Part shown: positions 1 through 64,000 of the stretch, in pieces
How the letters are laid out: the number at the start of each line of letters is the position of its first letter
Numbering within the stretch: the first letter of the stretch is position 1
NCBI GenBank assembly: GCA_963700665.1
Contig: CAVOYK010000009.1
Span: 52,324-116,323, forward strand
Direction: 5' to 3'
DNA: 64,000 nucleotides
From: an uncultured Actinomycetes bacterium
GTDB taxonomy: Bacteria > Actinomycetota > Coriobacteriia > Anaerosomatales > PHET01
Program-made: the position numbers and the translations under genes
The notes under the pieces: model-generated
What the model was told of the DNA's origin: nothing
What the model saw: only the letters and a program-made list of their open reading frames with translations
Database searches by the model: none

Positions 1-1827
1 CCCGCCGCCTGGAAGCCCCACAGCACGTTGTTGATCAGGGCGCGCTGCGCATGCTGATTGCCAGACGTGTTGCCTGCTGCAGCCAGCTGCGCCCCCGCGC
101 CGTCGTAGACCTGCAGGACGTCTTGGTTGTCGCCGCCTATCGCGACCGCTATCTCCGCCTTGCCGATACCATCAAGGTCACCCACCGAGGGTCCTCGAGG
201 GAGATGACCGTTGACGAGATACGAGCCGTCGAGCGCGAGGGAGCCGGAGCCTCCTGTGGCCACGACGATGCGGTTGTCGGCGTCAGCGGCGCCCGTGGTG
301 GTGGCCACGATATCGTCGGCGGTGGTCCCCACAACATCACCGGTGGTGATCCCGGTGATTGTGGACGTGGCCGAGACGGCAGCCACCGGGGCGAGCGCGA
401 CACCGTTCCACCGATACACCCTCAGAGTCGAGCCGTCAGCAGCTACGACCTCGTTGAGGTTTCCGATATCGCTGAGAACGTCGCCCACTGCGATGAAGGC
501 GGGCTCGGCCAGAAGCGTGAACGGTCCAGGCCTCGAGGTGACTCCCGCCAGAGCCGAGCGCCGAATGATCGACACGGTCGGCGACCCCGCACGAGTCACG
601 AGGACTTCCGCCTTGCCGTCGCCGTCGATGTCGCCGCTCGTCATCGGACCGATGTCAGCTTCCAGCGCAGGCCGAGGGCCGAGCAGGCTCGTCGACGCGG
701 CGGTCTGCCGCGTGTAGACCTGCGCCAACCCGTACTGCTTGAGGTTCGTCGCGGCCCCATAGGCCCCGACGACCTCGAGAACGGGCGCACCGGCCGTAGC
801 GTAGACGGAGGCCACGTCGGTCGCGATCGTCGAGCCGGTCCCGTGGCAGCCGTAGCACAGCCCGTCGCCGTCAGCCTTCGCGAGCTTGGCGATCGGAGCG
901 CCCGATCCGTCGTCGGCGCCCATCGCAACGTGGCACGTCTGGCATTCGCCGACGAGACGCTCGGCGTCCGGGTCGCCCACCGGCAGCCGTGTGGCCCACT
1001 CGGTGCCCACGGGGACCGTCTGCGATGTCAGCCCGTGAGAAGAGGCCTTGATGGACGAGCCCCCCGGCGTAGGTCGCCTGCGCATTCGCGTGACAGCCGT
1101 AGCACAACCACCGATCGTTTGCGGGCACGGCGGTCGTATCGGTCACCGACGGCGTGGGCGGAGCCAGTTGCGTGACGACGAGTGCCGTATTGCTGGAGCC
1201 GTGCGGCTCGTGGCATATCGAACATGTGATCTTCGTCCCATCCGTGCGAGCCAAGGCGCGCGCATGAGCGGTCTGGTCCCATACCGAGGTGCCCGGGAAC
1301 AGGTTTCCTGGTCGCACCCCGTGACACGCCGAGCAGTACGCGTCCCCTGAGCGGTAGTACGTTCCTGAGGGGTTTCGCGATTCCAGCAGCGCCGGATATG
1401 GGTCACCGTTCGTGTCGCGCTCGGACCCATGACTGTCGTGACACGAGTAGCAGCCCTTGGGTGAGGGTCCGTAGTCCGAGGTGTCCGGGGCGATCAGATG
1501 AGCGGAGTCCGACTGGAATTCCGTGTAGGTGTCGTAGTCAGAGCCGAGTCCGTCGTGACACGAGAAGCACAGCTGCGTGTCACCAGCCGCACCATCGTAC
1601 GTCCCGACGATCAGCGCGTTGACCTCCGCGCCGAGCGTCAACGTGGGATCGGCAGTGATCGTAGACGCAGAGGAGTGGCTTCGGTGGCAGATCGCGCACG
1701 TATCGGTGTCGCGAGTCAACGCAACGTGAGGGGTCACGGCCAGCGCCGGCCGTGCGGATAGAGCCGCTGTCGCGCACAACAGCGCCGCGGTCGAGACGAA
1801 GAGCGTTCTCCGAATCGTCCTCATCAT
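1..1827 (-). pseudogene. Secreted multihaem c-type cytochrome (8 CxxCH) fused to FG-GAP/VCBS-like repeats; 3' end runs off the window; 1 frame change
   Basis: ORF 871..1827 gives signal peptide MMRTIRRTLFVSTAALLCATAALSARPALA and motifs CAICH, CFSCH, CYSCH, CSACH, CSICH, CYGCH. My manual translation of the minus-strand frame from ~1060 to base 1 has no stop, so it is absent from the ORF track. It gives CQTCH and CYGCH, then repeats such as GDIDGDGKAEVLV and GDLDGIGKAEIAV. The frame change falls in the C6 run at 1061-1066. Confidence 0.8.
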
Positions 1828-1930
1828 GCGTCCCAGTTCCGCGCATCCTTCAGTGGCTCAACGGCTCGCGCCGACAAGCCTGCGGGTGGTACTCAAGCCT
1901 TCAGTGTAGCCCCTTGCACGCCGGTAGGCA

Positions 1931-4035
1931 TCACCGCACCGTCACATAACGCCAGCTGGAGTATGTCGGGAGGTGTCCGCCGTCGTCGTGATAGGCACGG
2001 ACACGCCACCTGCCCTTGTAGGGAATCGCGTAGCGTGCCTTGACCCGAGAATACGAGGAGTAGTTGTACGCGCTCGCATACCTGGTCGTGTAGTGACGCC
2101 ACTTGCCCTTGTAGTAGCGCTGGAAGTACATCTTCACGGGCTTGCCGGAGTGGCGTGGCTTCAGGTTGGCGTACCAGCTGTACGTCCGCTTGCGGTATAC
2201 CCTGCTCTTGTGCGGCCACGGCCTGCTCAGATACACCTTGGGATCGACGTAGCGGCTGACGGTCCACACGCCGTCGTAGCCCGTCGCGCCGGCGAAGAGC
2301 AGGCGGTAGTAGGTCTTGGTGTAGTTGTAGCCACTCGAGCTCGCGGGAACGGAGAACCGCACGTAGCCGTTCTCGTCCGTCTCCGCCGAGGTGACGTCGA
2401 TCCACGAGCCCGAGGTGCGCCCGGACAGTCTCTGGAGTATGACGGTCTGACCCTCCAACGGCGTGTCCCCACTCTTGAGAACACCGGAGAACGCAGCTGT
2501 GCGGCCGTAGGAAACCCGCTGGTAGCCGCTGAGGTACGAGAACCACGACGTCGCGTTCGCCACCGAGAAGTTGATCGTCTTCGTGGGTGACCAGTTCCCG
2601 TCTGCGTCCTTGACCTTGAAGGCGATGCTGTAGGGATCTTCGCGTGGTCCGAAGACTAGTTCTTTCGTCGCCGCGTTGACGGTCTGAGGTGCCCCGCCAT
2701 CCAGTCGATACTCGATGGCCGCGATGGGCTGACCGGGTCCACGTATCGGCGATGGTGAGCTGCTTCTCGGAGTGCTGGCCGTAGCCCGAACCCTGACCCA
2801 TCGGGTCCCACGCCTGGACTGCGTACGTGTAGGTGCCCGGCGCTGCGGCATCAGGCATCTCTCGGACGCTGGCTCGCTCCGACTCGCTCGTGAGCTCGGC
2901 CCATGCGCCGGTCCCGGACTTGCGCCACACGCGGTAGCTCATCGGGCGCGTATCGTCAGACGCATCCGTCGGCGAGTTGGGTGGGCGGCCCCACACGAGC
3001 TTCACCTGGCCCGAGTCCGTGCCCGAGAGGTTGACGGTGGCAGTTCCCTCGTAGTTCTCCTGGTAGTCCGCCATGGCAACCGGGATCCCGCTACCAGGAA
3101 CCAGCGACATCGAACCCGCGGGCACCGGGCCGTACTTGTAGCCAGATGACCTTCAGGTCGTCGATCGCAGGTCCTTGGCCGTTCTTGACGCCACCCGCGC
3201 CGGGGGTCATGTCGAAGAACTGGAACCACAGGGTACCCGCCTTGCGCGCGAGCTTGACGGTGTTGCCGTTGGACAGCTCGCGGGTCACGCCTTGCCACGA
3301 GCTCCCCGTGGGGAATCCGTAGACGCTCTCGTTGGTACCCGGGGCGCCCGATGCTTCCCAGTGAAGGCTGAAGATGTCGTTCGTGCCGAGGCTTGGCATC
3401 AGGTAGTAGTAGGAGAGCCACGACCGGTAGTACTCCGACAGCTGTGGCAGCTGGATGGTCGCACTGCCGCGCGTGCCAGAACTCGGCCACTTGTAGTTGA
3501 CGTAGACCGTGGCTCCGTTCGGAATCACCGTGTTCTTGCGAGCGATGGTCGTGTAGCCCTGGGCGTTCACGCGCGACCACGTAGTCCGTGTCCCTCTTGT
3601 ACTTGACGCCACCGACGGCCAGGCTCCAGACCTCTATGCTCGACACCTCGCCGCCGAAGGCCCTTGGAAGGTGAGGGCCGTGGGGTTGGTGCTGGTGAGC
3701 TTGATCGGCTCCCTCGTCTGCTGAACGTAGTCGTAGAAGGCAGGGTAGAGCGGGAAGAACGTCGAGGGGCCGAGCGTCGGGTACTGCTGCGTGCCGGCAC
3801 ACCACAGGCTGTATCCGGACGTGCCTCGACGTACGTTGGTGATCCTGCCCCAGTACGCGCGGGCAGGGCGCTCGCTGGGAATCTCGGCGAGGGCGAATCC
3901 GCCTGCATCCGAGTTGAAGTCCGCCGATACGATCGTCTGCTGCGCGGTGGGTGGATCACCTGCCCACGCGCTCGGAACGAGTGCGAGCAGAAGAGCAAGT
4001 GCGATAGCGACGATCCATGGACTTCTCGGAGGCAT
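1931..4035 (-). pseudogene. Secreted ~700-aa surface protein with FN3-like and Ig-like domains and a Tyr/Arg-rich C-terminus; at least 4 frame changes
   Basis: ATG at 4035 is preceded by AGGAGGG and followed by signal peptide MPPRSPWIVAIALALLLALVPSAWAG. Fragments 3634..4092, a short stretch of the 3002..3805 frame (FGGEVSSIEVWSLAVGGVKYKRDTDYVV), 3091..3612, 1893..3125 (VKLVWGRPPNSP...TYTYAVQAWDP) and 1931..2851 join into one protein. Confidence 0.6.
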
Positions 4036-4048
4036 TGCCGGATCCCTC

Positions 4049-4810
4049 CTACAGGGTGTCCGGGAAGGCCTTGGCAGCCTTCTCGGCTTCATTGCTCAGA
4101 CTCGACGGCTTTCCATCGAGCGTGGTCAGGACTACTTCGAACACGTAGCGTCCGCGCACGTAGACGACTGTCGCAAAGCGCGTGCCGTCAGTGCCGAAGT
4201 ACGCAGTAGAGCCGTCGACCTTGAGCGTCTTGGGGTTCTTGGCGTACAGGCTCTTGCTCACCTTGTTGACGAACGTGAGGGCGTCCTTGTTGCTCTTTCG
4301 GTAGTGAACCGCCCACAGCGCCCGAGATCCGATCAGGTCGGGTCCGTTTGGGGTCCCCGAGACCGTCGCATCGTCATCGACGACGACCTTCTGGCCCAAC
4401 GAGTAGCCTTCTGCTGACGGCGGCAGAAGCACGCCGAGATCGTCAGTTGGCTTGCTGAACGCCGGGTCGTCGGCCTTGGGGGCCGCAGGCTTCGGCTTCT
4501 GGCTGCTCGAGCTGCTTGCGCCGCCCGATGAGGAAGCCGCCGCGTTCGACTGAGTCGTCCGCGCGACCTGCAGAGTCTGCACCGCCTGTTGATTCGTCGG
4601 GTCCGCGGCGACAACCTGTTCGAGCAGGGCGATCGCTGCGGTCGTATCGCCCGACTGCAGTGCCAGCTGAGCACGTCCGTAGAGAAGATCAGCCTCGGTT
4701 GCGGCGTCGGTGGTGGCCGCGAGGTTGGTGTCGGGCGCCTGCGTGGCCTGTGGCTCAGAGAGGGCCGATCCGACAACGATCACACCGGCCAGGATCAGCA
4801 CACCGACCAC
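4049..4810 (-). CDS. Membrane-anchored protein with TPR-like segment, Ser/Ala/Pro linker and C-terminal globular domain
   Basis: 253-aa ORF with TM helix VGVLILAGVIVVGSAL and LYGRAQLALQSGDTTAAIALLEQVVAADP. The in-frame upstream stretch to 4903 encodes a basic tail but has no canonical start codon, so the true start is uncertain. Confidence 0.5.
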   Translation of the reverse strand: MVGVLILAGVIVVGSALSEPQATQAPDTNLAATTDAATEADLLYGRAQLALQSGDTTAAIALLEQVVAADPTNQQAVQTLQVARTTQSNAAASSSGGASSSSSQKPKPAAPKADDPAFSKPTDDLGVLLPPSAEGYSLGQKVVVDDDATVSGTPNGPDLIGSRALWAVHYRKSNKDALTFVNKVSKSLYAKNPKTLKVDGSTAYFGTDGTRFATVVYVRGRYVFEVVLTTLDGKPSSLSNEAEKAAKAFPDTL

Positions 4811-4906
4811 GCCCGCGAGAACGCCCCGCGCCTTCTTGGGAACCCTCTCGACCAGACGCGCGAGGCCTCTTCGAATCTCGGATACTTGTCTGAACTCTCC
4901 TGCTCA

Positions 4907-6264
4907 CTACGCTCCAGTTCCCTCTGTGGCAACGGCTCGTCCCGCCTCCAGGGCGTCGTCGTCCAATGAGGCGGCTCCTCGTGACGCAGCATCCTCGATC
5001 GCCGCGGCAGCCATCGTCACAAAGGAAGTCAGGCTTCCTTGGGCTTCCCTCGCAAGTTCTGCGAGCACGGGGTCTGCCATCGTCATGGGAGGTTGCGAGA
5101 TCGACGCAGCTTCAAGCCACAAGTCGATCATGTCGACTGCTATCTCATCTGGCGCGTCCTGGAAACGCTCCAACCCCGGGAAGTCCCACTTGAGCTGTGT
5201 GCCGGCCGCGAACTGCTCTTCGAGTTCCGGGACTCCGCCCTCGTCAAGCAGGAAGACGAAGACCGCGTCGATCCTGCAGCATCCAGCGCATCTCATTGAG
5301 CGTCACGACGATCGTCTGGCGCAGTTCCGGGGCGATCTGCATCCAGCTCTCGAAGCTGTCGTAGATGATCACCAGCTTGTCGAAGCGGGTGGTGGCCAGG
5401 TTCGCGACAGCCGAGAGGGTCTTTCGCGGAGCCTTGGTCACCTTCCACTCGGTCGACAGCGCAGCAAGCCCGCGATCGCGATAGACGCGCAGGCCGCGCG
5501 CAACCACCTTGGACAGGTGGGTGGAGGTGTACTCGATCAAGATAGTCGACGACCGCCTGCCGCTTGAGGTCTTCTTCCTCTTCGGCCGAGGGAATGGCGG
5601 CGGCCGTCCCCGGGGCGTCGCCGATCGTGACGTCCACCTCGGCAGAGTCCTCCGACTCGTCGGCGTCCTGATCCAAGCCCGCGACGCGGATGTCGGCCAA
5701 CTGCGCCAGCGCGGGCTGTCGCTCGATCTCAGGCGTCCCAAAGTACTCTCGAGTGACCGCGACCGGATCCGCCGCGAACAGGTCTGCGAACTCGGACAGT
5801 CCTTCTGCGCCCAAGACCTGGAAGGCAGCCAGCTGCTCGTCAGGCTCGGCGAGCATCGTCGCGATGTAGGAGGCAAGCGTCTCATCGAAGGAGCGGAAGG
5901 CGACACGCTCCCCAACGGCTCCCAGCGTGGAGCGCACGCGTCCCTTGCGCATCATGTAGAGCTGGATGTAGGCGTGAACCACGTTCAGCGAGTCGTCGCT
6001 GCCGATGGCGTGCTCGACGTTGCCGATAGCGCGCAGCGAGTACGAGGAGGGGACTTCGGCTCTTGGAGACGACGATCGGCTTGGCCTCGATCGGTCGCGG
6101 CGGCCGCGGCGATCGCAGCAAGCAGGCGATTCGAGGCGGCCGCGACTTCGAGAAGGGTTCCCAGTGCCCCAACCTTCCGTTGTAGGAGCTGCGAAGGGAT
6201 TCGCGACCAGCCCCAAAGAGCGGTACCGAGCAATGTCGTGGGAAGCTTCCGAGTCGTTCGTCAC
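4907..6264 (-). pseudogene. Hypothetical ~450-aa acidic cytoplasmic protein, possibly a degenerate P-loop NTPase-like fold; at least 5 frame changes
   Basis: GTG at 6264 follows GAGGAGAG. Stitching frames of ORFs 5293..6417, 5985..6233, 5882..6364, 5244..5915 and 4907..5296 gives MTNDSEASHDIARYRSLGLVANPF..., a Walker-B-like KLVIIYDSFESW and an acidic linker DQDADESEDSAEVD. No intact Walker A is visible. Confidence 0.3.
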
Positions 6265-6377
6265 GGTCTCTCCTCGAATCGTGGTCGAAGTACGTTTCAG
6301 CATAGCGTGATGTGATGGAGAAGCTGTGTACGCGGTGCGTGATGAACCTGTGCGCTCCGTGCACGACAGCCGACGAA

Positions 6378-6406
6378 GGGCCCCGGACCGTTTGGTCCAG
6401 GGCCCC
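6378..6406 (-). terminator. GC-rich hairpin about 50 nt downstream of the hydrogenase-operon cytochrome
   Basis: Plus strand reads GGGCCC-C-GGACC-GTTT-GGTCC-A-GGGCCC: 6+5 bp stem with one mismatch and a 4-nt loop. There is no clear U-tract. Confidence 0.45.
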
Positions 6407-6456
6407 ATCGTCCTCAACAGGTCTCGAAGAGCAGACCCGCAGCGCTCAGATGAACG

Positions 6457-7824
6457 CTACTTGTTGTGGCAACGCTCGCACACGCCGCGCTCGTTGGCAC
6501 GGAGCAGTGCGCTGGTACCGACGATAGCCGGATCGCCAGGGATGCCAGGTGCACCGGACTTGTCCGGGCTCACGCCAGGAACGCCGTCCTGGACAGGAAC
6601 GACCGTGCCGGCCGAGTTCGTGGTCAGGCTAGCTGCAGCCCATCCGCTCATCGACGTGGAGGCACCGTGTGCCCTGTGGCAGGTCAGGCAGCCGATGTAG
6701 TTCTGGTAGAAGAGCGAGGTGTCGCCAGGGGTGTTGCCCTCGTCAAGCTCGAGCGGCACCCAGTCGCCGTCTTCTCTGACCTGCTCCTGCAGAGCACGGC
6801 CAGGACCGAAGCCGGCGGCCAGCGTGACGTCAACCGGGTGACGGTGACGACGCTGAGCACCAACAACGCCGTCCTCCGAGTTCGGAGCACCGGCGCTGCC
6901 GTCGTAGTCATACGTGGCCAAGAGACCACCGTTGGCGGCGGTGTTGCCCGCAGACGTGGCGTAGTTCTCGTGGCACGCAGCACACCAGACCGACATCGAC
7001 TCGGCACCGGTAGCATCCTGGTGCAGGATCTTGGTACCGCCGGTGTAGTCCGGCTTGTAGGCCGCCATCTGAGCAGCGCCGTCCTCGTGCTTCAGCCAAC
7101 CCTTGTTGGCGCCCGCAGGATCCGGGTAGCCGGTCTCGTACGAGAACACGAACGCATCCGGGGTCTCGCCGTCGGCCTCGTAGCCACCGACGGTGTTGCC
7201 GTTGACCTCAGCCTTGAGCAGGCGGTAGTTCGACGTGCCGTGAGGATCGTGGCAGTCGGTGCAGGTCAGGTTCGCCCACGTCGGGCACGGAGGTGCCGGC
7301 GCCCCAGAGGGGACCAGCGGCTTCCATGCTGTGAGCCGACGTGGCAGCGGCGTAGCTGACAGTCGCGCGTGTCTCCCACACGTACGGGTCTGGCATCTGA
7401 GTGAAGCCACCACCGTTGAGCGGAGCGTCGAACGTCGACTCGGACTCGTACTGCGACGACAACGCCGCCGTTGTCCGCCGCCGACGAGCATCGCCGATCA
7501 GCACCCGTGGGGCCGCAGTCGAAGACGCCGGAAACGACGTTGGTCGAAGCGCCAGGAGCGAGGTCGCCGTGACACGCGTTGCAGAACTCGGTCATCGTCG
7601 TCGCGGAACCGACGAGCAACGCGCTCTCGTGCTCGGTGCCGAGCTGGTCGGTCCAGCCGACGAGTCGAGAACGACGTGTGTGCGCGGTGACAACCGGCAC
7701 ACGAATCAGTGTCGTCGACGTAGCCACCGTGAGGGCCGAAGTTCGCGTAGGCCGCCCCGGCGAAGACGAGCGACAGACCGATTGCCAGAACGAGAATGGT
7801 AGAGATTCGCTTCAAGATCTTCAC
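6457..7824 (-). pseudogene. Secreted multihaem c-type cytochrome (at least 6 CxxCH), third gene of the [NiFe]-hydrogenase operon; at least 3 frame changes
   Basis: Signal peptide MKILKRISTILVLAIGLSLVFAGAAYA, then GPHGGYVDDTDSCAGCHRAH. Further motifs are CNACH, CTDCH, CAACH, CLTCH and C-terminal CERCHNK. Fragments are 7498..7824, 7266..7727, 7208..7504 and 6457..7491. The SD AGGAGG lies between the hydrogenase large-subunit stop (7835) and the start. Confidence 0.75.
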
Positions 7825-7834
7825 CTCCTAGTGG

Positions 7835-9793
7835 CTAGTGGACCGCGCAAGCGATGCACGGGTCGAAGGACTGGGCAACACGCAGGGCCTCGACTCCACC
7901 CTGGCCGGAACCGGCGGTCCCGTCCTGCTTGGTGAAGCTGCCCGAGTTTCCGGCGTACGGAACACCGATCATGGCCTGCTCGATCGGGCCACGGTTGCCA
8001 AGGTAGTCCTTGGGCGAGACGTTCCACGTCGTCGGAACGATGCACTGGTACTTGGTGATCTTGCCGTTGACGATCGTGCACTGGTGCATGAGGGCACCAC
8101 GCGGAGCCTCGGTGCCGCCCCAGCCCTGCTTCGTGCCAGTCGGGATCGGCTTGTCTCTTCCACGTATCGCCAGTGGCGTACTTGAGACCACCGATCCAGC
8201 CAGCCGTGTCGTCCGCGCCGAACGCCAGCGTGGCGCCGGACTTGTCGACGGCACCGAGAATCGCCTGAACGAGGACGAGCGACTCGAGTGCGCGAGCGCG
8301 AAGGCGGTCGATGGTGGAGAGACCACCGTTGATGCCGACCACGTGACCGGCAATGGCGCCGCCGATGTAGGAGCCGGCCTCGCCGTAGAGTCCCGAGATC
8401 GTGGCAGCCGAGCCAGGACCGGTGGGACAGTTGGCCTGAGTGACCGGCACTCCGAGGCTCGAGCCCTCGAGCGTCGCCAGACCCGCGCGAATCAGCGCGA
8501 CGGCGATATCGGCAGCGACCATCTTGGGATCGAGACCCGCAAGCTTGGTGTAGTGCGCGTGTAGCCAGGAACCGTTGCCGGCAAGCGGCGTACCGTCGAT
8601 CGGATAGTAGCCGGCGACGACGAGGCGAGCGAACGGACCGACCTCGCGAGCGACGCCGCCCCAGCGCGGGGCCTTGATGTACGTGTAGCCGTTGGCACGA
8701 TTCGGCTCGGTGCGGGAAACGTCACCAGGATAGGCCTGGCAGGTTCGCCATCGTACTCACCGAGGCTGTCGCGCGTAGCGCGAGTTGGTGATGTCCTCTT
8801 GAGGTTCGTCGGGACGCTGTTGGCGCCAGCGACGAAGTTCGCGAGAACGCCGGCCTTGTCGGTGACGACAAAGTCGGTTCCGCCGGCCGGCTCCACCGGT
8901 CCACACGCCACCGGGAAGGGCGAGCGTGTCGTCGGCGGGGTTCGGGAACGCGCCCCACGCGAGGAAGTTGCCCACGCCGGCGCCGTAGCCCAGGCCGCCG
9001 GTGTTGTTGGTGTTGTCGAACGTCGGGTAGAGCACGCCGAGCGCCAGAACGATCGGCACGTACTCCTGGACGACGAAGCGTCCGACCTCTTCCATGATCG
9101 CACGGAACTTGTCGCAGCGTGTCGGCGAGGTCTTGCGGTCTTGTCGACGGTGACGCCGCCACCGATGTAGCACGAGGTCATCGGCATGCGTCCGGCGAAC
9201 AGCGCGCCGGCCTCGAAGGTGAGGCGACGGATGCGCAGCGCCATGACGTAGCTGCGGATGACGGTCGACCAGACGTCGGTCGAGCAGGCCATCGTCGTTG
9301 TCCGGAACGCGCACGGCCGTTGGACAGCAGCGCTGCGGTGTAGTCGGCGGTGGCGAAGTACGGGGTCCACGGCGGAATGGCCGGGCCCTGAACGTAGCTC
9401 GGTGCAGCCAGGTGATAGAAGTGCGTGATGCTCGACATCAGGAACTCGGAGCCCAGCACGAGGTTGCGGATGTAGACCGCCTTGGCCGGCACGCCGTAGG
9501 TCCCGTCGTCGGCGAACGTGATGTGGTTCTGGCTGTAGCCGAGAACCGCGTCAGCGGCGTACGTCGACGTCATGCCGTGAGGAACCGGGCAGACGCCGCA
9601 GATGCGCTGCGTGAACGTGATCGCGTCGTTGACCTCGCGGCCGAGCAGGAAGTTCTCGAAGCCACGCCACAGGTTGCCGTGGACGTCGGCTTCGGTGATG
9701 ATTCCGCCGGCCTCGGTGACCTTGACGCCCAGGTGACCCTCGATACGTGAGATCGGGTCGACTTCGATACGTTGCCTAGCTCGATCTAGCCAT
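7835..9793 (-). pseudogene. [NiFe]-hydrogenase large subunit; at least 7 frame changes
   Basis: ATG at 9793 follows GGAAGGAGGG. Manual translation gives RIEVDPISRIEGHLGV and RICGVCPVPHG (N-terminal Ni-binding motif). The C-terminus is SFDPCIACAVH followed by a stop. Fragments from ORFs 9178..9573, 8492..9370, 8757..9314, 7821..8522 and 7835..8353 lie in all three frames. Confidence 0.85.
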
Positions 9794-9814
9794 TATTCCC
9801 TCCTTCCCAGTTCT

Positions 9815-11159
9815 CTAGCGCGCCACGAACGGCACGAAGCTGTCAGGATAGCCCTTCTCGGTGCACGCCATGCAGGGGTGACCAGCCGCGTGCAGTGACC
9901 GCCGGTCTTCTGACCGTTGGGGGCTAGGTTCGTCGTCGGACCGCCGTAGTTCCAGGCGTCCGGGTTCTCCGGCTGCTGGTTGTTCCAGCCGTGCATGCCA
10001 CACAGCGAGTTCGTCGCGGGGCCCTTGCATCCGATCTTCTGCAGGCAGCCGGGGTCGCCGGGCTTGGCCGCGAAGTCGCCCTTGACGTAGTCGCGATAGC
10101 GCGGGCAGTACGGGCCGTGGATCGGCGTGCCGTAGACCATCTTGAGGCGACGATCGCCGTCGATGGCGTTGGCGTTGAACGACAGGTCCTGGTTGACGAT
10201 GCCCAGAGGACCGTCGGTCGCCGCGAGCGGGCCGTTGACGAGGTCGACGAGGAACAGCACGACCGTGAGGGTGAACCACCACGGGTTGGTCGGGCAACCA
10301 GGAACGTTGACGACCTTGTTGGCGGCGGCCGTGTGGCCGTGCGCAACGAGGTAGTCGTAGGTGCCCATGGCACCGGTCTGCGACTGCAGCGGATCGAAGC
10401 CCGCGGTTGCAGCGCTGATCGGGGGCTTGCAGCCCGGATAGCCGCCGAAGGTGGCGCACTGACCGATCGGGATGACCGCGACGCAGGTCGCCTTGGTCGG
10501 CGAGCGTCGACGACCGTCTCGGCCATGTCGTGCTCGATCGGTGCCGTCGGCAGACATGCCGATGGAGCACCACGGAACGCTCGTGTCGCCGTGTCGCCCC
10601 ACGCGCCGCCACCGGCAGCGTCCTGAAGCGCACCCTCGACGACGAGCACGAACGGCCGTCGCCGGGTTGGGCCGCTGATCCGGGCACGTAGTTCCTGAAG
10701 TCCTCGAGCCACTGGGCCGCGAGGTCGCCGCCCATGCCCATGACGGTCTCGTGGTACTGCAGGTCGATGACGTCGACGACGACGTCGGCGATGTTCATCG
10801 CCGAGCTGTCGCCCTCGACGTTGTAGCCCGGTCGCGTGAAGCGTGAAGTCGCGCGCCACCGAGCTGCGTCGGCAGGATGCCCGCGCAGGCCCGCGGCCGC
10901 ACCTGTCGTGATGTCGGTGCCCTCGACCGCGATGCCGCCGGTGTCCTCGAAGATGCCGAGAAGCGACGTCGAACAGCCAGTGCACTCCGCGCCGTGGATC
11001 CAAACGACCCGCGGCTTGCCGAGCGTGCCGCCGAGATCGGTGCTGCCGGTGCCGAAGGCGAACGCTCTCGACGAGCTTCGAGACTTCGGCCTGGCTCATC
11101 CCGACGGCGGCGGCGAGCGCACCCAGGCGGGTGACGAACTGTCGCCTGGTTATAGCCAT
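9815..11159 (-). pseudogene. [NiFe]-hydrogenase small subunit, Tat-exported, no C-terminal membrane anchor; at least 4 frame changes
   Basis: ATG at 11159 follows GAAGGAGGAG. Twin-arginine leader MAITRRQFVTRLGALAAAVGMSQA. Manual translation gives VVWIHGAECTGCSTSLL. Later fragments give GQCATFGGYPG, NVPGCPTNPWW and GCKGPATNSLC, ending HPCMACTEKGYPDSFVPFVAR. Confidence 0.85.
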
Positions 11160-11456
11160 ACTCTCTCCTCCTTCACATTACTCGTGAACAGTCCTCAAAT
11201 TGCATACGTGCCCGTGACTCCGAGCGTGACGAGTAAGAAAACGCCACCTCCTTTCGATCCACAGCTCAGAGGACCGGATGGAGATGGCGCGTCATCGACG
11301 CTATGAAGGCTGCTGGCGGACCCTTACCCTTGCGACGACTAGACTGCAGCGAGGTATGAGACGTCTCCGACCAGGCGGGTCTTCGTGCCGGCTCCAACCC
11401 GTTGGTCCTTCTCGGAATACCCCTCCTTCTCGGGTAACGGTGCACGTGCGAACGAC

Positions 11457-47550: not shown

Positions 47551-47552
47551 CG

Positions 47553-51935: not shown

Positions 51936-53331
51936 CTAGACGGTCCGAACGTGGATGAAGTCGGTGCCCCCGCGAGTGCGTGTGGACAGACCGGCGGTGA
52001 TCGCCACCAGCTCGCCGCGCTCGACGAAGCCTGCCGCGGCGAGTGCCGAGGCCCCCTGGTCCAGGAGCACGGACGTCTCGTCCGAGAAGGGAAAGACCAC
52101 CGCTTGCACCCCCCACGCCAGGGCGAGCCTTCGCACCGTCTCCACGAACGGGGTCGCCGCCACTATCTGCACGTCGGGGCGATAGCGAGCGACCGACATC
52201 GCCGTCGCGCCGGACTGAGTCAACGGCACGATCGCAGCGAGTTCGAGGTCGGCAGCCAGATCGCTGACCGCGGCGCTCACCGCCGCTTGGACGTCGCTGC
52301 CGTGCGCACTGCGAATCGGCCGAGGCGGAGGCGACGCCTCCTCGGCTGCGACGATGATTCTCGCCATCGTCTCGACGGATTCGGTGGGGTAGCGGCCCAC
52401 CGCGGTCTCGCCGGACAGCATCACGGCGTCGGCTCGGCCGAAGATCGCCGTGGCCACGTCGCTGGCCTCGGCTCGGGTCGGGCGAGGGTGTTCCCGCATC
52501 GAATCCAGCATCTCGGTCGCGATCACGACCGGCTTGCCGGCAGCCCGTGCGCTCGCGACGATCTCGCGCTGCAGCACGGGCACTCGCTCGGGCGAGGTCT
52601 CGACGGCCAGATCGCCTCGCGCAACCATCACCGCGTCGGCCGCCGCGACTATGCGCTCGATGTCCCCAGCAGCCTCGTGCTTCTCGATCTTCGCGAGAAT
52701 CGGGATCTCGCGTGTGGTCATGTACTCGCGCATCTGGTCGACATCGTCAGCGGATCTGACGAACGACTGGCCGATCCAGTCGATCTCGTTGACCATCGCC
52801 CATGCCAAGACCGTCTTGTCGTAGCCGGTGATCACATCAACCGACAGGGTCACTCCCGGTACGTTGACACCCTTGTGGCTGCTCAACGGACCGCCGTTGA
52901 CGATCTCGGTTCTCACCTCGCCCATCGCCGTTCCCAGCACGCACAGTTCTATCAACCCGTCGTCGAGCAAGATCCTGTCGCCGGATCGCACATCGTTGGC
53001 CAGCTCGCGGTGAGAGATGCACGCGTGGGCCGAGTCTCCAACGCACTCCTCGGCAAGCAGACGAAACGGGGTGCCGGCCTGCAAGCACCGTGCCGGGCTC
53101 GACGTCGCCTACGCGGATCTTGGGTCCGGGGAGATCGAGCAGCACGCCGATCTCGCGCCCCACGCGCCGCGCGGCCTCACGCGCCGACCGAAGACGCGTC
53201 GCGAGCTCGCCGGGACCGGCATGCGCTGCGTTGAGGCGTACGACGTCGGCGCCGGCCGAGATGATGGCGTCCAGGACTTCGGTGCCGTCCGTGGCGGGCC
53301 CTAGAGTCGCAACGATCTTGGTGCGGCGCAT
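51936..53331 (-). pseudogene. pyk: Pyruvate kinase; 1 frame change near 53085
   Basis: MRRTKIVATLGPAT...LDLPGPKIRVG (ORF 52837..53331) joins LQAGTPFRL...KGVNVPG...MVARGDLAVE (ORF 51936..53084). Confidence 0.85.
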
Positions 53332-53392: not shown

Positions 53393-54283
53393 CTACTCGA
53401 CCGCGCGGGGAAGTCTGACCAACTGGATGCCTTCATCGGCTCTTCTGACGGTCACTTCGTCCCGAGCCAGCCTATGCGCGGCAGTACGCAGGTTGCCGTA
53501 GAGTCGCTCGGCTCCCTTCGCGTCGGTCTTTACCAGAATCGCTCGATCGCCGCCGGTCAGGAAGTAGCGGACCAGGCGGGTCGCCGAACCCCTGGGCGCA
53601 GGGTACGGCACCTCAACCACGCGGGCACCGAGCTCCCACACGTCGTCGGGCAGACACTCCTTGCACCACGACGAGACCCCCGCTTCGAGGAGTATCGCCC
53701 GCTTCTGATCCTGCTCCCCGCACACGCCGTTGGTGACGATTCTGAGCCTGACATCGAATCCTTGCATCGCTGCAGAACGGGCAAGATACGCCCAGTCCAT
53801 CGATCCGTCGTCGTCGAGCAGCATGATGATCCGGTCGGCCACATGCTCCGCAAGGACTGTGAGTAGCGTCAGAAGCCCGACGCCTCTTCGGGGCGTGAAC
53901 GTCACCACCGCGGCGTCGAAGAAGGCTGCCTCGGTGAGGTCCTCTACCATGCCGAGCATAGTCCCAAGTCGAGGATCGTTTCTGACGTCCGAGGAGAGCA
54001 GACGTCGCAGCATCCCCTCGGAAGGTTCGAGCGCGGTCAGCGACTTGGAGACCTGCAGCAAAGGCCGCGTCAGCAACCCAGCCGCGGCGCCTACCTCAAG
54101 GATGTGGCTGTCTCGCGGAACGGCTTCGAGCAACGCCTCGACGAGTTCAGGGAAGACCCGCTCTTGACCGAACGTGTAGTCGTAGCGATCGGCCAGGCGC
54201 TCTCGGCGGGCCAGAACCGACTCTATGGGCACACCGAACTGGTTGTTCGATGCCTCGTTGGGTCTCCTGGTCCTGTCCTTCAC
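53393..54283 (-). CDS. Class I SAM-dependent methyltransferase
   Basis: 296 aa, intact. Motif I ILEVGAAAGLLTRPL. Confidence 0.6.
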   Translation of the reverse strand: MKDRTRRPNEASNNQFGVPIESVLARRERLADRYDYTFGQERVFPELVEALLEAVPRDSHILEVGAAAGLLTRPLLQVSKSLTALEPSEGMLRRLLSSDVRNDPRLGTMLGMVEDLTEAAFFDAAVVTFTPRRGVGLLTLLTVLAEHVADRIIMLLDDDGSMDWAYLARSAAMQGFDVRLRIVTNGVCGEQDQKRAILLEAGVSSWCKECLPDDVWELGARVVEVPYPAPRGSATRLVRYFLTGGDRAILVKTDAKGAERLYGNLRTAAHRLARDEVTVRRADEGIQLVRLPRAVE

Positions 54284-54314
54284 TCAGCCGCCTCCACCGC
54301 AGAGCCGATCGGGG

Positions 54315-56390
<2,076 letters not shown>

Positions 56391-56406
56391 GACCGCCGCG
56401 CGCCGG

Positions 56407-57384
56407 TTACGGGGTCGCTGTGGTCGTGTTCGACGCGGCCGGAAGCTTGAGCTCCTCGACGAGAATCTCGATCTTGGCGTTCTTGCGCAGATCGTCCAGG
56501 TACTTCTGATAGGCGTCGGCCCGGGTCTGCTGGACGAGGATCTGCTGGATCTGATCCTTGACGTCGGCCAGCTTCTGCTGCGAGCCCTTGCGCTCGTCGG
56601 TCACCCTGATGATGTGCCATCCGTAGGGTGTCTGCACCAGAGCGGAGGTCTCGCCCTTGTCGAGCTTGGCGAGCGCGGTCTCGAACTCGGGAACGTAGGG
56701 CGTTGTCGGCCAGCCCAGATCGCCGCCCTTGCTCGCCGTGGCGGTGTCGACCGAGTTCGCCTTTGCCAGCGCCGCGAAGTCCCCGCCATCCTCGACCTGC
56801 TTCAAGACGGACTCTGCCTTCTTCTTGTCCTCCGGCTTGAACAGGATGTGTGAGGCGCGCTTGGCTTCCTTCTGGAAGAACTGGGTCTTGTTCGCGTCGT
56901 AGTACGCCTTGATCTCGGCGTCAGAGGCCGTGCTGTCCTTGGCAAGCGACTCCACGATCTTCTGGGTGAGCAGCTGCTCTCTGACCTGCGCCTTGAGGGA
57001 CTCCTCGGTCATGCCGGCGCTCTGTAGCGCCGAAGTGAACTGAGCGTCGTCCTTGAAGCCGGCCTTGAGCTGATCGATCTGGGTCTGCACGGCAGCGTCG
57101 TCGATCTCGATGCCCTTGTCCTTGGCCGCCTGTTCCAGCAGCTTCTGGTTGATCAGGTTGTCCAGGATGCGCTGCTTGAAGTCGAGCAGTCGACCCTCAG
57201 CGTCGGCTCCCTCGAACATCTGCGGGTACTGCTTCTTCAGCTGATCGACCTGCACCTGCAGCTCTTCGACGGTGATGACCTCGTCGTTGACCTTCGCAGC
57301 GATGTTCTTCTGGCTGCAGCCGACGACACTGACTGCGAGGAGGGCCGCAAGGGCGGCGGCCAGGGCGAGACGAAGCGGCTTCAT
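56407..57384 (-). CDS. Lipoprotein parvulin-type peptidyl-prolyl isomerase (SurA/PrsA-like)
   Basis: ATG at 57384, MKPLRLALAAALAALLAVSVVGCS. PpiC domain ASHILFK...GGDLGW...GWHIIRV. Confidence 0.8.
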   Translation of the reverse strand: MKPLRLALAAALAALLAVSVVGCSQKNIAAKVNDEVITVEELQVQVDQLKKQYPQMFEGADAEGRLLDFKQRILDNLINQKLLEQAAKDKGIEIDDAAVQTQIDQLKAGFKDDAQFTSALQSAGMTEESLKAQVREQLLTQKIVESLAKDSTASDAEIKAYYDANKTQFFQKEAKRASHILFKPEDKKKAESVLKQVEDGGDFAALAKANSVDTATASKGGDLGWPTTPYVPEFETALAKLDKGETSALVQTPYGWHIIRVTDERKGSQQKLADVKDQIQQILVQQTRADAYQKYLDDLRKNAKIEILVEELKLPAASNTTTATP

Positions 57385-57388
57385 CGGG

Positions 57389-60300
57389 TCATTCCTTCCA
57401 AGGAGTGCGATTGGGCTCAGCAGAGTATATAGCACCAAGGATACCGAGAACGGCTCCGGACACGGAGTCTCCATAACCTATCGACGAGGACAACTCCTTC
57501 TTGCGCTCGACGTAGACGGCGCCCAGCGCACCCATGCGGCCCATCTGTTCGTCGTCGAGATCGACCTTGGACACCGTGATTCGGTGCCGGACGACCGCCA
57601 CGTTCGTGATTCCAAGGTCTGCGGCCAGCGCCTTGATTCGAGCTATGTCCACGAGGTTGCGCGCCGGTTCGGGGAGCGCGCCGTAGCTCTCCCTGAGCTC
57701 GGCTGAGACCGCGTCGACCGACTCGATGGTGGGCGACCCGGCCAGGCGCCGGTAGTAGCGGACCCGCTCGTCGACCTCGGCCAGGTACTCCTCGGGGATG
57801 AAGGCGGAGATCGGCAGATCGACTCGGACGTCTGGGTGAGCGACCAGGGGTTCGCCTCGCGCTTCGGTGACCGCCTCCATCAGCATCTGGGCGAACAGGT
57901 CGAAGCCGACCGCGGACAGGTTGCCGCTTTGCTCGGCGCCGATGAGCGAACCGGCCCCCCGGATCTCGAGGTCTCGCATCGCGATCTTGATGCCGCTGCC
58001 CAGGTCGTCGTGGTCCCGGATCGCAGTCAGGCGTTCGACAGCCTGCTCGGTGAGCGATGCGGTGCGCGGGAACAGGAAGTACGCGTACGCCTTGACATGG
58101 CTGCGACCCACCCTGCCCTTGAGCTGGTAGAGCTGTGCCAGGCCCAAACGCTGCGAGTCCTCGATGATGAGCGTGTTGCTGTGCGGATTGTCGATGCCGC
58201 TCTCGATGATCGTCGTGGCCACGAGCACATCGGCCTCGTTCGCGGCGAACTGCTCCATCACGGCCTCGAGTTGCTTCTCGGACATCTGCCCGTGCGCTAC
58301 CGCGATGCGCGCCTCCGGTGCCGCGTCGCGCACGCGCGCCACGGCGTCGTCGATGGTCCTGACGCGGTTGCTGACGTAGTAGACCTGGCCACCACGCTCG
58401 AGCTCGCGACGGATCGATCCGGACACGACGTCCTCGTCCCACTCGCCTACATGCACCTGCACGGGAAAGCGGTTGGGCGGCGGCGTGTCGATGACCGACA
58501 TGTCCCGGACTCCAGAGAGCGACATCTGCAGGGTGCGAGGTATCGGCGTCGCCGAGAGGGTCAGAATATCAACCTGCTCGCGCAGGTTCTTGAGTTGCTC
58601 CTTGTGCTCCACACCGAAACGCTGCTCCTCGTCGATGACGACGAGGCCGAGGTCTTTGGGGGTCACGTCGCGAGACAGCAGCCTGTGCGTACCCACGAGT
58701 ACCGCGACCTCGCCGACGGCGAAGCCCTCAAGCGCGGCTTTCTGCTCGGTGTCGGTCCGAAAGCGGCTCATGACCTCCACTCGCACGCCGAACGGCTCGA
58801 ACCTCTCCGAGAAGTTCGTGTAGTGCTGTTGCGCAAGAATCGTGGTGGGACACAACACCATGACCTGCTTTCCGTCTTGCGCCGCCTTGAATGCGGCACG
58901 GATCGCAACCTCGGTCTTGCCGTATCCAACGTCGCCACAGACCAGACGGTCCATCGGCTTGTCTGACTCCATGTCCACCTTCACGTCCGCGATGGCCGCA
59001 AGCTGGTCCGGCGTCTCCTCGTAGGGGAACATCGCCTCCATCTCAAGCTGCCACGGCGTGTCTTGTCCGTATGCGTGGCCGGTCACGGTCGAGCGTCGCG
59101 CGTACAGGTCGACCAGGTCGAACGCGAGCGCACGAGCGGCCTTGCGAGCTTTGCCGGTAGCGCGACTCCAGTCCGCGGTGTTGAGCCGAGTGATCCGCGG
59201 AGCGCCGCCATCGGGGCCGACGAACTTGGTCACACGGTCGATCTGCTCGGCCGGCACGAAGAGGCGATCGCCCTTCGCGTACTCGAGAAGCAGGTAGTCG
59301 CGCTCGGCGCCCAGCACCTCTTGGCGCACCACGTCTCGGAAGAGCGCGATGCCGTGGACGGCATGCACGACGTAGTCGCCGGGCACGAATGCGAACGTCA
59401 CCCGGGTCGGATCGATCTCTCGGCGGCGCCGGCGCTGCGTCGAGCGCGGGTAGACGTCGTCGATCGACACGACAGCGAGCCTCGCGTCGGGCACGACGAA
59501 GCCCGCCGGCACGTCGACGTCGGTCAAGTCGACAGTGCCCGGCTCGAGCCGACCGAGAACGGGCAGATCATCACCGGAGGTTCGGTCGCGTTCCTCTGCG
59601 ACGGAGAGGCCAGCCTCGGCAAGGGCGTCGCCGACCTTGCGCCGAGTACGACGATCGGGCACGGCCAATGCGACTCCGTAGCCTGCCGAAAGCAGCGACC
59701 TCACGCCACCGACGAACTTTTCCTCGCCTCCCGATACCTCGGGCCTGCGAGCGACGAGTTCCCCGTCCACGCCCGCGCCGGCGCGGAGCAACGAAAGCAG
59801 GGTGAGACGCTGGCGGTCGCCAAAGTCGATCTGCGCCGGCGAGAGGTAGAGCCCTTCCAGGGCCGGCTTGGCAGGTGCTACCGAATGGTATCCCGCGGCT
59901 TTCGCCGCGGTCTCGAGCTCTTCTCTGCGCCGGACGGTGTCGTCGAACAGCGAGCGCGGCTCGGCCACCACTACGAGGACCTCCGAGCCCAGGTACTCCG
60001 TGGGCGCCGCCGTCCTCTTGTAGAGCAGAGGCAGGAAGCGTTCGACACCGTTGAACGGGATACCTTGGCCGAGCATCTCGAGCTGGCGTGCCAGTTCGGG
60101 GTCCTTGAGGGCTCGATCGCCGAGGGCTCGCTCGGCTGCTTCAGCGCCGCGTTGGGAGAGAGTCAGCTCGCGGCACGGGTAGGCCTCGACCGGCTCGCTG
60201 TCGCCGATCGTCTGGCCGGTGCCCGGCACGTAGCGCTTGAGCGTCTCGATCTCGTCGCCGAACAGCTCGGCTCGTACCGGATGCTGGCTGCCGGCGCTGT

Positions 60301-60850
60301 AGACGTCGAGGATGCCGCCTCGGATCGCGAAGGTCCCCGGCTCGTCTGCGGCCTCGGCTCGGCTGTAGCCCATGCTCACCAGCCGCACGGCGGCAGCCTC
60401 GAGGTCTACGGTCCCGCCCACCGCGAGAGTGAGGGGATCGAACACGCGGCTGCCCTGGGGCGGGACCGCGCGCAGAAGCGCGCGCGCGGCGGCCACCACG
60501 ACCACGGGGCGATTCTTGTCCAGCGCGTACAGGGCGCGAGCGCGAGCGCCGACCTCGCCCAGGTCGGGGGCGCTTGACGACCACGGAGTGTCCGACCGAT
60601 CGGTCAGCAGCAGCACTCGCTCCCGGCCGAGGAAGGCAGCTGTCTGGCGCCAGAAGCGCTCGGCTACCTCGGTCCCCGCTACCACGACGAACATCGGACG
60701 AGGGCTGAGGCGGTAGAGCGCTGCAACAAGCGCCGGGCGCACGAGTCCGGGCGCCGAGAGCGTCGCGTCCGAGCCGTGCGAGAGTAGTTCGGCTATGGCA
60801 CCGAACGAGGGCGCCTGGCGTAGAGAGGCTGCGAGTCTGTCGATGAGCAT
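57389..60850 (-). CDS. mfd: Transcription-repair coupling factor Mfd
   Basis: Intact 3.46 kb from ATG 60850 (the track ORF extends to 61117). Sequence includes GDYVVHAVHGIA, DRLVCGDVGYGKTEVA, VIDEEQRFG and QLYQLKGRVGRS. Confidence 0.9.
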   Translation of the reverse strand: MLIDRLAASLRQAPSFGAIAELLSHGSDATLSAPGLVRPALVAALYRLSPRPMFVVVAGTEVAERFWRQTAAFLGRERVLLLTDRSDTPWSSSAPDLGEVGARARALYALDKNRPVVVVAAARALLRAVPPQGSRVFDPLTLAVGGTVDLEAAAVRLVSMGYSRAEAADEPGTFAIRGGILDVYSAGSQHPVRAELFGDEIETLKRYVPGTGQTIGDSEPVEAYPCRELTLSQRGAEAAERALGDRALKDPELARQLEMLGQGIPFNGVERFLPLLYKRTAAPTEYLGSEVLVVVAEPRSLFDDTVRRREELETAAKAAGYHSVAPAKPALEGLYLSPAQIDFGDRQRLTLLSLLRAGAGVDGELVARRPEVSGGEEKFVGGVRSLLSAGYGVALAVPDRRTRRKVGDALAEAGLSVAEERDRTSGDDLPVLGRLEPGTVDLTDVDVPAGFVVPDARLAVVSIDDVYPRSTQRRRRREIDPTRVTFAFVPGDYVVHAVHGIALFRDVVRQEVLGAERDYLLLEYAKGDRLFVPAEQIDRVTKFVGPDGGAPRITRLNTADWSRATGKARKAARALAFDLVDLYARRSTVTGHAYGQDTPWQLEMEAMFPYEETPDQLAAIADVKVDMESDKPMDRLVCGDVGYGKTEVAIRAAFKAAQDGKQVMVLCPTTILAQQHYTNFSERFEPFGVRVEVMSRFRTDTEQKAALEGFAVGEVAVLVGTHRLLSRDVTPKDLGLVVIDEEQRFGVEHKEQLKNLREQVDILTLSATPIPRTLQMSLSGVRDMSVIDTPPPNRFPVQVHVGEWDEDVVSGSIRRELERGGQVYYVSNRVRTIDDAVARVRDAAPEARIAVAHGQMSEKQLEAVMEQFAANEADVLVATTIIESGIDNPHSNTLIIEDSQRLGLAQLYQLKGRVGRSHVKAYAYFLFPRTASLTEQAVERLTAIRDHDDLGSGIKIAMRDLEIRGAGSLIGAEQSGNLSAVGFDLFAQMLMEAVTEARGEPLVAHPDVRVDLPISAFIPEEYLAEVDERVRYYRRLAGSPTIESVDAVSAELRESYGALPEPARNLVDIARIKALAADLGITNVAVVRHRITVSKVDLDDEQMGRMGALGAVYVERKKELSSSIGYGDSVSGAVLGILGAIYSAEPNRTPWKE

Positions 60851-61023: not shown

Positions 61024-62429
61024 ATGGACACAGAACAGGAGCAGCGGGCGAGCAAATCCGAGACGGGCGACAGTCCGGCGCTCGAAACCCGCGAAGCCGA
61101 CGTCGAGGCTCCGCCACAACCCATCGTTCGAAGAGCCGGCACGTTCGAGTCCTTCAAGCACCGCGACTTCGTCTGGTTCTGGTTCGGCGCGCTGGTGAGC
61201 AACGTGGGCACGTGGATGCAGAACTACGCACTGGGCATCGTCGTGTTCGCATTCCGAAAATCCGAGTTCGACCTGGGTCTCATCAACTTCATCTCGGGAA
61301 TCCCGGTGCTGTTCCTCGCCATCGCAGGCGGTGCACTCGCGGACCGCGTGAACCGGCGCAAGCTCCTGATCTGGGTACAGGTGGTGCTCATCGCACAGGC
61401 CACCGCGCTCGGCTGGCTCTACACATCCGGCCGGCTCTCTGGATCGGACCCCGTCGTTTCGCTTCTGTGGGTGGCTCTGCTCGGCGCCATCGCCGGCGTG
61501 TTCGCCGCATTGCAGTTCCCCGCGTGGCAGGCGATGCTTCCCGACCTCGTTCCGCGTGCAGTCGCTCTTGAACGGCATCGCGCTCAACTCAGCCCAGTTC
61601 CAATCATCACGCCTCATCGGCCCGCTTGTCGCGGGAGCACTGGTCGTGGCCGGGGCCGGCATGGGCGAGATCTTCTACGTGAATGCGGCGTCGTTCCTGT
61701 TCGTGATCGCGTCGCTGTGGGTCATCAGGCCGAATCAGGACCGTAGCCACGCGCCGCGACGAGGCAAGACCATCGAGACGCTCCTGGGCGGTCTGAGCTA
61801 CGCGCGCAAAGAAGACACGGTCAGTCGGCGTGCTGCTTCTGAGCACCGCGATCATGACGATCTTCGGCTTCCCGTACATGACGCTGCTACCCGCCATCGC
61901 CGACAAGTCCCTGGGCTTCGCCTCGGGCACCGACAGTTACAACCGCGCGGTCGCGGTGATCATGGCCGCGAACGGCTTGGGGGCCATGGTCGGCGCGCTC
62001 TCCGTCGCGAGCCTGCCGTCCACCGTTCGGCGCAACCGGATCATCCCGCTGTCACTGCTGAGCTTCGGCGTGCTGCTCTTCGGCTTCTCTCTCTCACGCA
62101 CACTGTGGGTGAGCGTGGTGATCTCCGCGTTCGCGGGAGCGGCGCTCATGACTACGAACTCGCTCGCGAACACGTCTATCCAAGCGTCGGTGCCTGCGCA
62201 GCTTCGCGGCAGGGTCATGGGGCTGTTTGTCATGTCCTTCATGGGCATCATGCCAATCTCAGGACTGGCCTTTGGAGCTGTCGGCGAATTCATCGGTCCA
62301 TCCAATGCAGTGCTCGTGGGTTCGATCGCGCTCATCGCATGGGCGGCTCTCCTGGTCGCTAAGCCCAAGTGGCTGCAGTCGAGCAGTGATGAACCGACGT
62401 CCCGGACGGGTATGGGTTCCACGAACTGA
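61024..62429 (+). pseudogene. MFS transporter (EntS/DUF894-like); 2 frame changes (~61555, ~61825)
   Basis: Fragments 61024..61746, 61556..62362 and 61830..62429 join into a protein with about 12 TM helices (FVWFWFGALVSNVGTWMQ..., ALADRVNRRK). Confidence 0.7.
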
Positions 62430-63156: not shown

Positions 63157-63201
63157 GCGCCAAACGCCCGAAGCGCGATCGACACCAGCCCGGCGCGAAC
63201 G

Positions 63202-63936
63202 CTACTCCGCGACTTTTCGCTCCTCACGTACCTGTGCGCCCGCAACACGTTCGAGGGTCTCGGTGTACTCGACAAGCTCGATCTCGCATCCCTCGCCGAG
63301 CGTGACGCGTGCTCCACGCACGACCTTCGCTGTCGTGCTGATCAGGTAGACGTCGTCGGCCTCGATCGAGTCCGCCACCAGGCGCCGGTCGGAGAACATC
63401 GAGAATATCGACGTGAAGCCCTCGGGTACGCGCAGGGTGATGCGCTCGCCACCGATCTCACGAGCCGAGCTACGGCCGTGGAGCTTCAGGTCGATCACGT
63501 CGGCGTTGAGCAGGCCGTTGACCACAAAGCGGCCCTCGCCGGTGAACGACTCGCTGGTCAGGTCGCCCCCGACACGAAGCTCACCGCGAACGTCGACCTC
63601 GTGGGCGGCCAGCCCGCCGTCGAGTCCACAGGTGCCTCGAACCAGCAGACGGCCCACGCCCACTCCGGCGTGTATGTCGGTCGAGCCGTTGACCTGCATC
63701 TCGCCGGCCTGCACGGTTCCATCGAAGGTGCCGGCGCCGTTCACAGAGATCGAGTCGGCCTTGACCGAGCCCTTGCACTTTGCCGCGCCGTTCATCTTGA
63801 GCTCGCGACACTGTACGTCGCCGGTCACTGTCCCCGCACCGTTTATGGTTATTGCGCCGTAGACGCCGCCAGAGATGGTGCCGTCGCCAGCGACTCGCGC
63901 ATCGTTCAGAGTCTCAGCCATCACAGATCCTTTCAC
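63202..63936 (-). CDS. Bactofilin-like polymer-forming cytoskeletal protein
   Basis: 244 aa with repetitive beta-helix pattern (ITINGAGTVTGDV, ISVNGAGTFDGTV, MQVNGSTDIHAGV). Confidence 0.6.
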   Translation of the reverse strand: MKGSVMAETLNDARVAGDGTISGGVYGAITINGAGTVTGDVQCRELKMNGAAKCKGSVKADSISVNGAGTFDGTVQAGEMQVNGSTDIHAGVGVGRLLVRGTCGLDGGLAAHEVDVRGELRVGGDLTSESFTGEGRFVVNGLLNADVIDLKLHGRSSAREIGGERITLRVPEGFTSIFSMFSDRRLVADSIEADDVYLISTTAKVVRGARVTLGEGCEIELVEYTETLERVAGAQVREERKVAE

Positions 63937-64000
63937 TACTTCAAGCGGGCGCCGAGCGCCTCTGTCGCTTCCTGCAGGTTGATGCGCGCGAGCAGCTTGG
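63936..64000 (-). CDS. 3' end of an unidentified gene running off the right edge
   Basis: Manual translation gives ...KLLARINLQEATEALGARLK followed by TAG (63938..63936), which overlaps the next GTG. Confidence 0.3.
   Translation of the reverse strand, partial: KLLARINLQEATEALGARLK

Follow-up and report, generated by a model that had tools for sequence, protein, structure and literature searches.

The frame breaks that fragment a 64,000-nucleotide stretch of an uncultured Coriobacteriia genome (the window: positions 52,324-116,323 of contig C9 in the genome here called G000) are, on the comparisons made here, almost certainly errors in the deposited consensus of a draft metagenome-assembled genome (MAG) and not mutations of the organism, since indispensable genes throughout the genome are broken in the same way. 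All of the results rest on comparison and statistics. G000 amounts to 2.45 Mb at 65% G+C with a contamination of 1.2%, and it shows patchy, insertion-only consensus errors in a highly contiguous MAG, in which high contiguity (13 contigs) goes together with a depressed marker completeness (77.2%).

The extent of the breakage is evident from a genome-wide comparison with G014, a member of the same family whose genome is a single contig of 2.52 Mb. Comparing 1989 G014 genes, picked by codon usage, with all of G000 yielded 1292 orthologue pairs and 1.41 Mb of aligned sequence; 412 of these conserved genes (32%) carry 1104 well-flanked breaks. Essential genes, named by NCBIfam on the intact orthologues, are hit as follows:

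leuS, 18 breaks
metG, 11 breaks
lepA, 11 breaks
clpB, 10 breaks
carB, at least 9 breaks
gyrA, 8 breaks
purL, 8 breaks
gyrB, 5 breaks, the frames cycling 1-2-3-1-2-3
valS, 5 breaks
tuf (EF-Tu), 4 breaks
dnaE, at least 3 breaks

A search of G000 for second copies of the broken essential genes returned no intact one, and the other matches are paralogues at 45% identity or less; the breaks thus lie in indispensable single-copy genes. They also come without matching substitution damage such as nonsense codons or raised divergence. The G014 orthologues are 67% identical to unbroken genes and 72-76% identical to those with at least two breaks, so that broken genes are not more diverged than intact ones, and the coding density and protein identity of G000 are normal. 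Credible in-frame stops in a conserved context number about 1-3 in the whole genome, against some 1100 frame breaks; a higher initial count was rejected after inspection of the contexts, which revealed upstream extensions of stop-to-stop open reading frames (ORFs) and shadow ORFs. One stop, outside the window at C1:684,497, is clearly genuine: G000 has TAG where G014 has tyrosine, the context is identical at 22 of 24 residues, and the 1056-aa gene also carries nine frame breaks. This stop is probably a rare substitution error.

The window itself was compared with syntenic regions of four relatives, two from the same genus as G000 (G001, C7:106-198 kb, and G003, C6:183-257 kb) and two from the same family (G009 and G014). 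The relatives' ORFs were matched to the window by tblastn and then by frameshift-aware protein-to-DNA alignment to the intact ORFs of G014, G009, G001 and G003; window counts refer to breaks supported by at least two references unless they are marked as single-reference. In all, 54 frame breaks were found, each seen with 2-4 independent references, and they are arranged along the window as follows:

1-19,149, minus strand: dirty patch 1, with 33 breaks and about 17 single-reference breaks, most of them +1 insertions
21,734-27,054, no strand assigned: dirty patch 2, with 10 breaks, all backed by 2-4 references
27,848-37,791, no strand assigned: clean stretch with fetBA, a nitroreductase, two NrfH-type cytochromes, a response regulator and histidine kinase, and selB
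37,700-43,400, plus strand: sparsely testable stretch with +1 breaks at about 38,615, 38,982 and 43,385, G003 being the sole reference with orthologues
45,535-53,331, minus strand: dirty patch 3, with 11 breaks, all +1 insertions, and up to 8 more single-reference breaks
53,393-60,850, minus strand: clean stretch with a methyltransferase, enolase (eno), mazG, a peptidyl-prolyl isomerase and mfd, all intact, with 0 breaks
61,045-62,360, plus strand: gene with another pair of +1 breaks (61,558 and 61,805), G003 being the sole reference (80% identity)

Dirty patch 1 contains multihaem cytochromes, the small and large subunits of a [NiFe]-hydrogenase, an NHL propeller, a TPR protein and a cytochrome b; inside it, a 458-aa cytochrome (16,042-17,430) and the cytochrome b (18,328-19,200) have hardly any breaks. 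Individual intact G014 ORFs are spread over two to four frames of the window, as seen by tblastn for the 483-aa multihaem cytochrome (6,460-7,685), the 674-aa hydrogenase large subunit, the 805-aa GH42-like protein and pyruvate kinase. The breaks of dirty patch 2 fall in cbiM (21,734), in cbiO (23,332), in a flavodiiron protein (five, at 23,693, 23,862, 23,947, 24,185 and 24,447) and in a polyprenyl synthase (three, at 26,154, 26,192 and 26,912). Those of dirty patch 3 fall in the GH42-like protein (45,931, 46,933 and 47,091), a TPR protein (47,643 and others), a B12-binding protein (48,911, 49,305 and 49,324), ppx (49,865, 49,998 and 50,380) and the pyruvate kinase gene pyk (53,085). DNA alignments make the extra base directly visible: G000 alone carries it, against four relatives, at 26,155, 26,192 and 26,912, and against four agreeing relatives at 53,084, 47,092, 46,933 and 45,928, and multi-genome alignments show one-base insertions at 13,749, 13,897 and 14,193. 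The frameshift-aware alignment recovered the same three polyprenyl synthase breaks that are visible in the plain DNA alignments.

The clean stretches are equally distinct. Between 27,848 and 37,791 no break is supported by any good reference; the sole events there were called with G001 or G003 as single reference, and nearly all belong to the opposite type (F2), consistent with insertions in those references themselves. A single frame suffices for selB (77-86% identity) and for residues 5-1156 of mfd (1156 aa; 83% identity), and the 430-aa alignment of enolase is free of stops. The same picture emerges without any reference, in that the ORF list is highly fragmented and the frame with the highest third-position G+C changes every few hundred bases over 1-19 kb and stays constant across mfd, eno and selB. 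The calls at 38,615, 38,982 and 43,385 remain single-reference, because G003, itself error-prone, is the only usable relative there.

An original prediction, made from the sequence of the window alone, had described most of this layout. Its central claim, that frame-disrupting indels are strongly clustered and not uniform, holds for the 54 breaks of the window, for the test on its clean stretches and for the genome-wide dispersion test, both given below. Its counts and coordinates are essentially right: it gave at least 40 in 1-19,149, at least 12 in 45,535-53,331 and about 11 in 19,150-45,500, where ten were found in 19,150-27,100 and three G003-only breaks in 37.8-45.5 kb. The two intervals in which it needed no frame change are the two clean stretches above, and the shift it placed at about 38,985 corresponds to the +1 break at 38,982; the breaks at 61,558 and 61,805 are absent from its list. 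The sequence does contain the C6 run (near 1060-1065), the imperfect (CAG)n run (12,017-12,055) and the non-homopolymer site (53,085) that it singled out. It is right, too, in placing most shifts outside long homopolymers, and this extends to the whole genome. Pfam matches on the intact G014 and G009 orthologues agree with its naming of the broken genes (cytochromes, hydrogenase, cbiM, flavodiiron protein, polyprenyl synthase, GH42-like, B12-binding, TPR, ppx and pyk).

Two local features of the window deserve a separate word. An in-frame TGA in the hydrogenase large subunit, at about 8,758 (C9:61,081), was considered as a selenocysteine codon and found to be unsupported, since G014 has aspartate at that site; the surrounding sequence is very dirty, and the TGA most likely stems from misalignment or error. 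At 32,621-33,083 the DNA is self-similar at an offset of 104 nt (79% identity over 366 nt), forming a tandem array of roughly 35-residue units in the longer NrfH-type cytochrome that matches the repeated di-haem modules described earlier from the sequence alone.

The spectrum of the breaks is strikingly one-sided. Genome-wide, 933 are of the +1 type and 171 of the other type (F2), which two nearby +1 events also yield; among the junctions between high-scoring segment pairs that could be placed within 6 nt the numbers are 227 and 17, so that single-base insertions make up 85-93% of breaks. Homopolymers are not enriched at the junctions, where their frequency equals that of control intervals. 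Of the insertions that can be placed uniquely, 193 of 233 (83%) differ from both neighbouring bases, and all four bases are inserted. No sequence motif, whether a palindromic or methylation-type one or any other 4-mer, is enriched more than 1.7-fold at the insertion sites; an enrichment of CG, CGA and TCG flanks was not relied on, because 135 of the 193 sites share one codon phase, which confounds the signal. The errors are thus not concentrated in homopolymers, as they are in the typical Nanopore profile, and the artefact is not of the classic homopolymer kind.

The breaks are also far from evenly spread. At the 1.55 breaks/kb of the dirty stretches of the window, 27 would be expected in its 17.4 kb of clean stretches and 0 are observed (P ~2e-12), so that the clustering is not due to chance. 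Across the genome, per-gene break counts are over-dispersed (chi-square 3322, 1291 df, p 1e-178), and the counts of adjacent genes correlate with a rho of 0.35, against a maximum of 0.08 among 500 shuffles. A two-state hidden Markov model fitted to the breaks of G000 separates the following states:

clean state: 0.18 breaks/kb (close to the method background), 74% of tested DNA, median domain 13 kb, largest 173 kb
dirty state: 2.4 breaks/kb, 26% of tested DNA, median domain 5 kb, largest 53 kb

Breaks in dirty genes lie a median of 163 nt apart. The domain structure shows no respect for gene function; the dirty state has no association with intragenomic repeats or paralogy (odds ratio 1.16, p 0.71) and no clear link to strand or to distance from contig ends. 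The G+C content of dirty genes is slightly higher (66.4%, versus 65.0% for genes in clean DNA; p 4e-18). The three clusters of the window are three such dirty patches, and its mfd/eno and fetBA-selB stretches belong to the ordinary clean domains, of which there are many genome-wide.

Applied to the relatives, the same pipeline gives 0.11 breaks/kb on the clean relative G009, which we take as the method background, 0.58 on G001 and 0.97 on G003, versus 1.44 in the window; in G000, G001, G003 and G009 alike the breaks are +1-dominated. The same genes in G000, G001 and G003 break at different positions, and a gene broken in one of them can be intact in another: G001 alone has a broken selB, G000 alone a broken polyprenyl synthase and G003 alone a broken histidine kinase. 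The cytochrome/hydrogenase cluster is broken many times in G001 too, at positions other than those of G000. No ancestral frameshifts shared with the sister genomes were found; only two query positions shift frame in at least three genomes at once, and these are attributable to the reference G014. One lies near residue 137 of the GH42-like G014 ORF at 536,555-538,969 (L016:13555-15969), corresponding to about 47,560-47,650 of the window, where G000, G001, G003 and G009 all change frame and G014 is therefore the odd one out, either through a frameshift of its own or because two genes are read there as one stop-to-stop ORF. A similar G014 case occurs at 519,030-521,342, near residue 300. Among further members of the group, G010 and G027 (same family) have few contigs, a completeness of 51-59% and a fragmented enolase, and G003 has a completeness of 60% with its main enolase copy intact; several species representatives of the group look error-ridden, possibly from one pipeline.

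Could the breaks be genuine? Of the two explanations offered by the original prediction, local assembly or polishing failure is upheld, and the check it had proposed, comparison with orthologous loci in sister genomes, supports that reading in that break positions differ. The other, in which accessory respiratory genes decay under relaxed selection and housekeeping genes are kept, has in its favour that the densest cluster of the window is the cytochrome/hydrogenase supercluster, in which G001 is broken as well, and that mfd, eno and selB are intact; yet housekeeping genes are not maintained, given that tuf, gyrA, gyrB, leuS, metG and valS are equally badly broken elsewhere in the genome, dnaE and carB are broken there too, and pyk and the polyprenyl synthase are broken within the window. 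Nor is there the excess divergence or more than a trace of the nonsense codons that such decay would leave, and natural indel spectra favour deletions and repeats, unlike the near-exclusive +1 insertions seen here. The lesions are not confined to dispensable genes, they do not form the mixed spectrum of nonsense mutations, deletions and insertions, often in repeats, that marks pseudogenes (the insertions lie outside repeats), and the inactivating mutations are not shared with close relatives, in which genes broken in G000 can be intact. Every testable defining feature of decay under relaxed selection failed, and this is not a pseudogene cluster; we regard pseudogenisation as very improbable. 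Slightly less credible still is real decay or hypermutation of the whole genome in a dying or host-restricted lineage that would produce the insertion tracts. A third of conserved genes is affected, in patches, and such broken-gene fractions are known from recently host-restricted bacteria, but 4-18 frameshifts in each of tuf, leuS, gyrA, gyrB and metG, with no intact copies, are incompatible with life, coding density and protein identity are normal, and nonsense mutations and deletions are lacking. Moreover, the same spectrum recurs at different sites in three sister genomes, which points to a shared method and not to shared biology. Just as hard to credit is a reading in which the assembly reports true molecules and some biological process has peppered tracts of 5-10 kb with untemplated single-base insertions, for example error-prone recombination or repair synthesis, or the DNA of dead, decaying cells.

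That the breaks might arise in the comparison, from errors or divergence of the references or from misalignment, and not in the window, deserves equally little credence. The two positions traced to G014 show that references can be at fault, and single-reference and F2 calls are less certain; against this, the 54 window events are each seen with several independent references, the pipeline returns only its low background on G009 and about 0.1-0.2 breaks/kb in the clean domains of G000 itself, the ORF lists and the third-codon-position G+C track show the fragmentation without any reference, and the extra base can be read directly in DNA alignments. Consensus error is thus the reading we retain, although several points weigh against it. 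The status of the breaks as consensus errors is a matter of inference and not of direct observation; the signature departs from the homopolymer deletions of the textbook Nanopore profile; part of the F2 class and some of the single-reference calls may reflect alignment noise or reference faults; and the G001 breaks in the same cytochrome/hydrogenase cluster, taken alone, could hint at lineage-wide decay, though their positions differ.

If the breaks are consensus errors, about a quarter of the sequence would lie in patches, typically 5-10 kb and at most 53 kb long, with some 2.4 spurious single-base insertions per kb, and the rest would be essentially error-free. Such patches may be places where few long reads underlie the consensus or where short-read correction did not reach. 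They could have arisen in a hybrid assembly whose gaps were filled from few long reads, or in a long-read assembly in which short-read correction failed at low short-read depth, for instance in GC-richer DNA. A patch size of about one long read, adjoining long near-perfect stretches, suggests hybrid gap-filling or failed short-read correction of this kind. Both the patch size and the slightly higher G+C of the dirty genes fit the proposed origin, neither proves it, and dropout at high G+C would fit the small G+C difference.

The broken frames in the window and in the rest of G000 are accordingly not to be read as gene loss, and functional models may treat the cytochrome/hydrogenase cluster, cbiMO, the flavodiiron and GH42-like genes, ppx and pyk as intact. 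Some third of the proteins predicted from G000 are truncated or split, and the same holds, less severely, for its genus-mates G001 and G003, so that pangenome, pseudogene and completeness statistics of these little-studied uncultured Coriobacteriia will be distorted. The value of the result lies in quality control and not in biology: it is a warning on the G000 assembly and its genus-mates, and the insertion-only, non-homopolymer, patchy signature offers a practical fingerprint by which such assemblies can be recognised without reads.

Comparison with known systems places G000 among assembly artefacts. In pseudogene-rich genomes of the Mycobacterium leprae type a large fraction of genes is frame-disrupted, as in G000; there, however, essential genes are intact, lesions are mixed and shared by descent, and pseudogenes diverge faster, none of which holds for G000. 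In long-read MAGs, consensus indels fragment genes and depress completeness, the more so where coverage is low (below about 40-fold) and where short-read polishing is lacking (PMC9262707, PMC8103633); gene-fragmenting indels in long-read assemblies are also the subject of the proovframe preprint (10.1101/2021.08.23.457338) and of Kastor (PMC12007338). Like the MAGs with Nanopore, PacBio CLR or hybrid indel errors, G000 is a contiguous MAG with gene-fragmenting single-base indels and lowered completeness, and it shares with them the sparing of substitutions and nonsense codons; in that literature the errors depend on local data support, that is, on coverage and polishing. Unlike the homopolymer indels described there, those of G000 are predominantly insertions (85-93%), most of the placeable ones (83%) are not homopolymer extensions and no methylation-like motif accompanies them, and unlike evenly spread errors they occupy sharply bounded patches of about 5-10 kb. 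The artefact is thus a known one, the gene-fragmenting indels of long-read and hybrid MAGs, and only its insertion-only, non-homopolymer signature is unusual.

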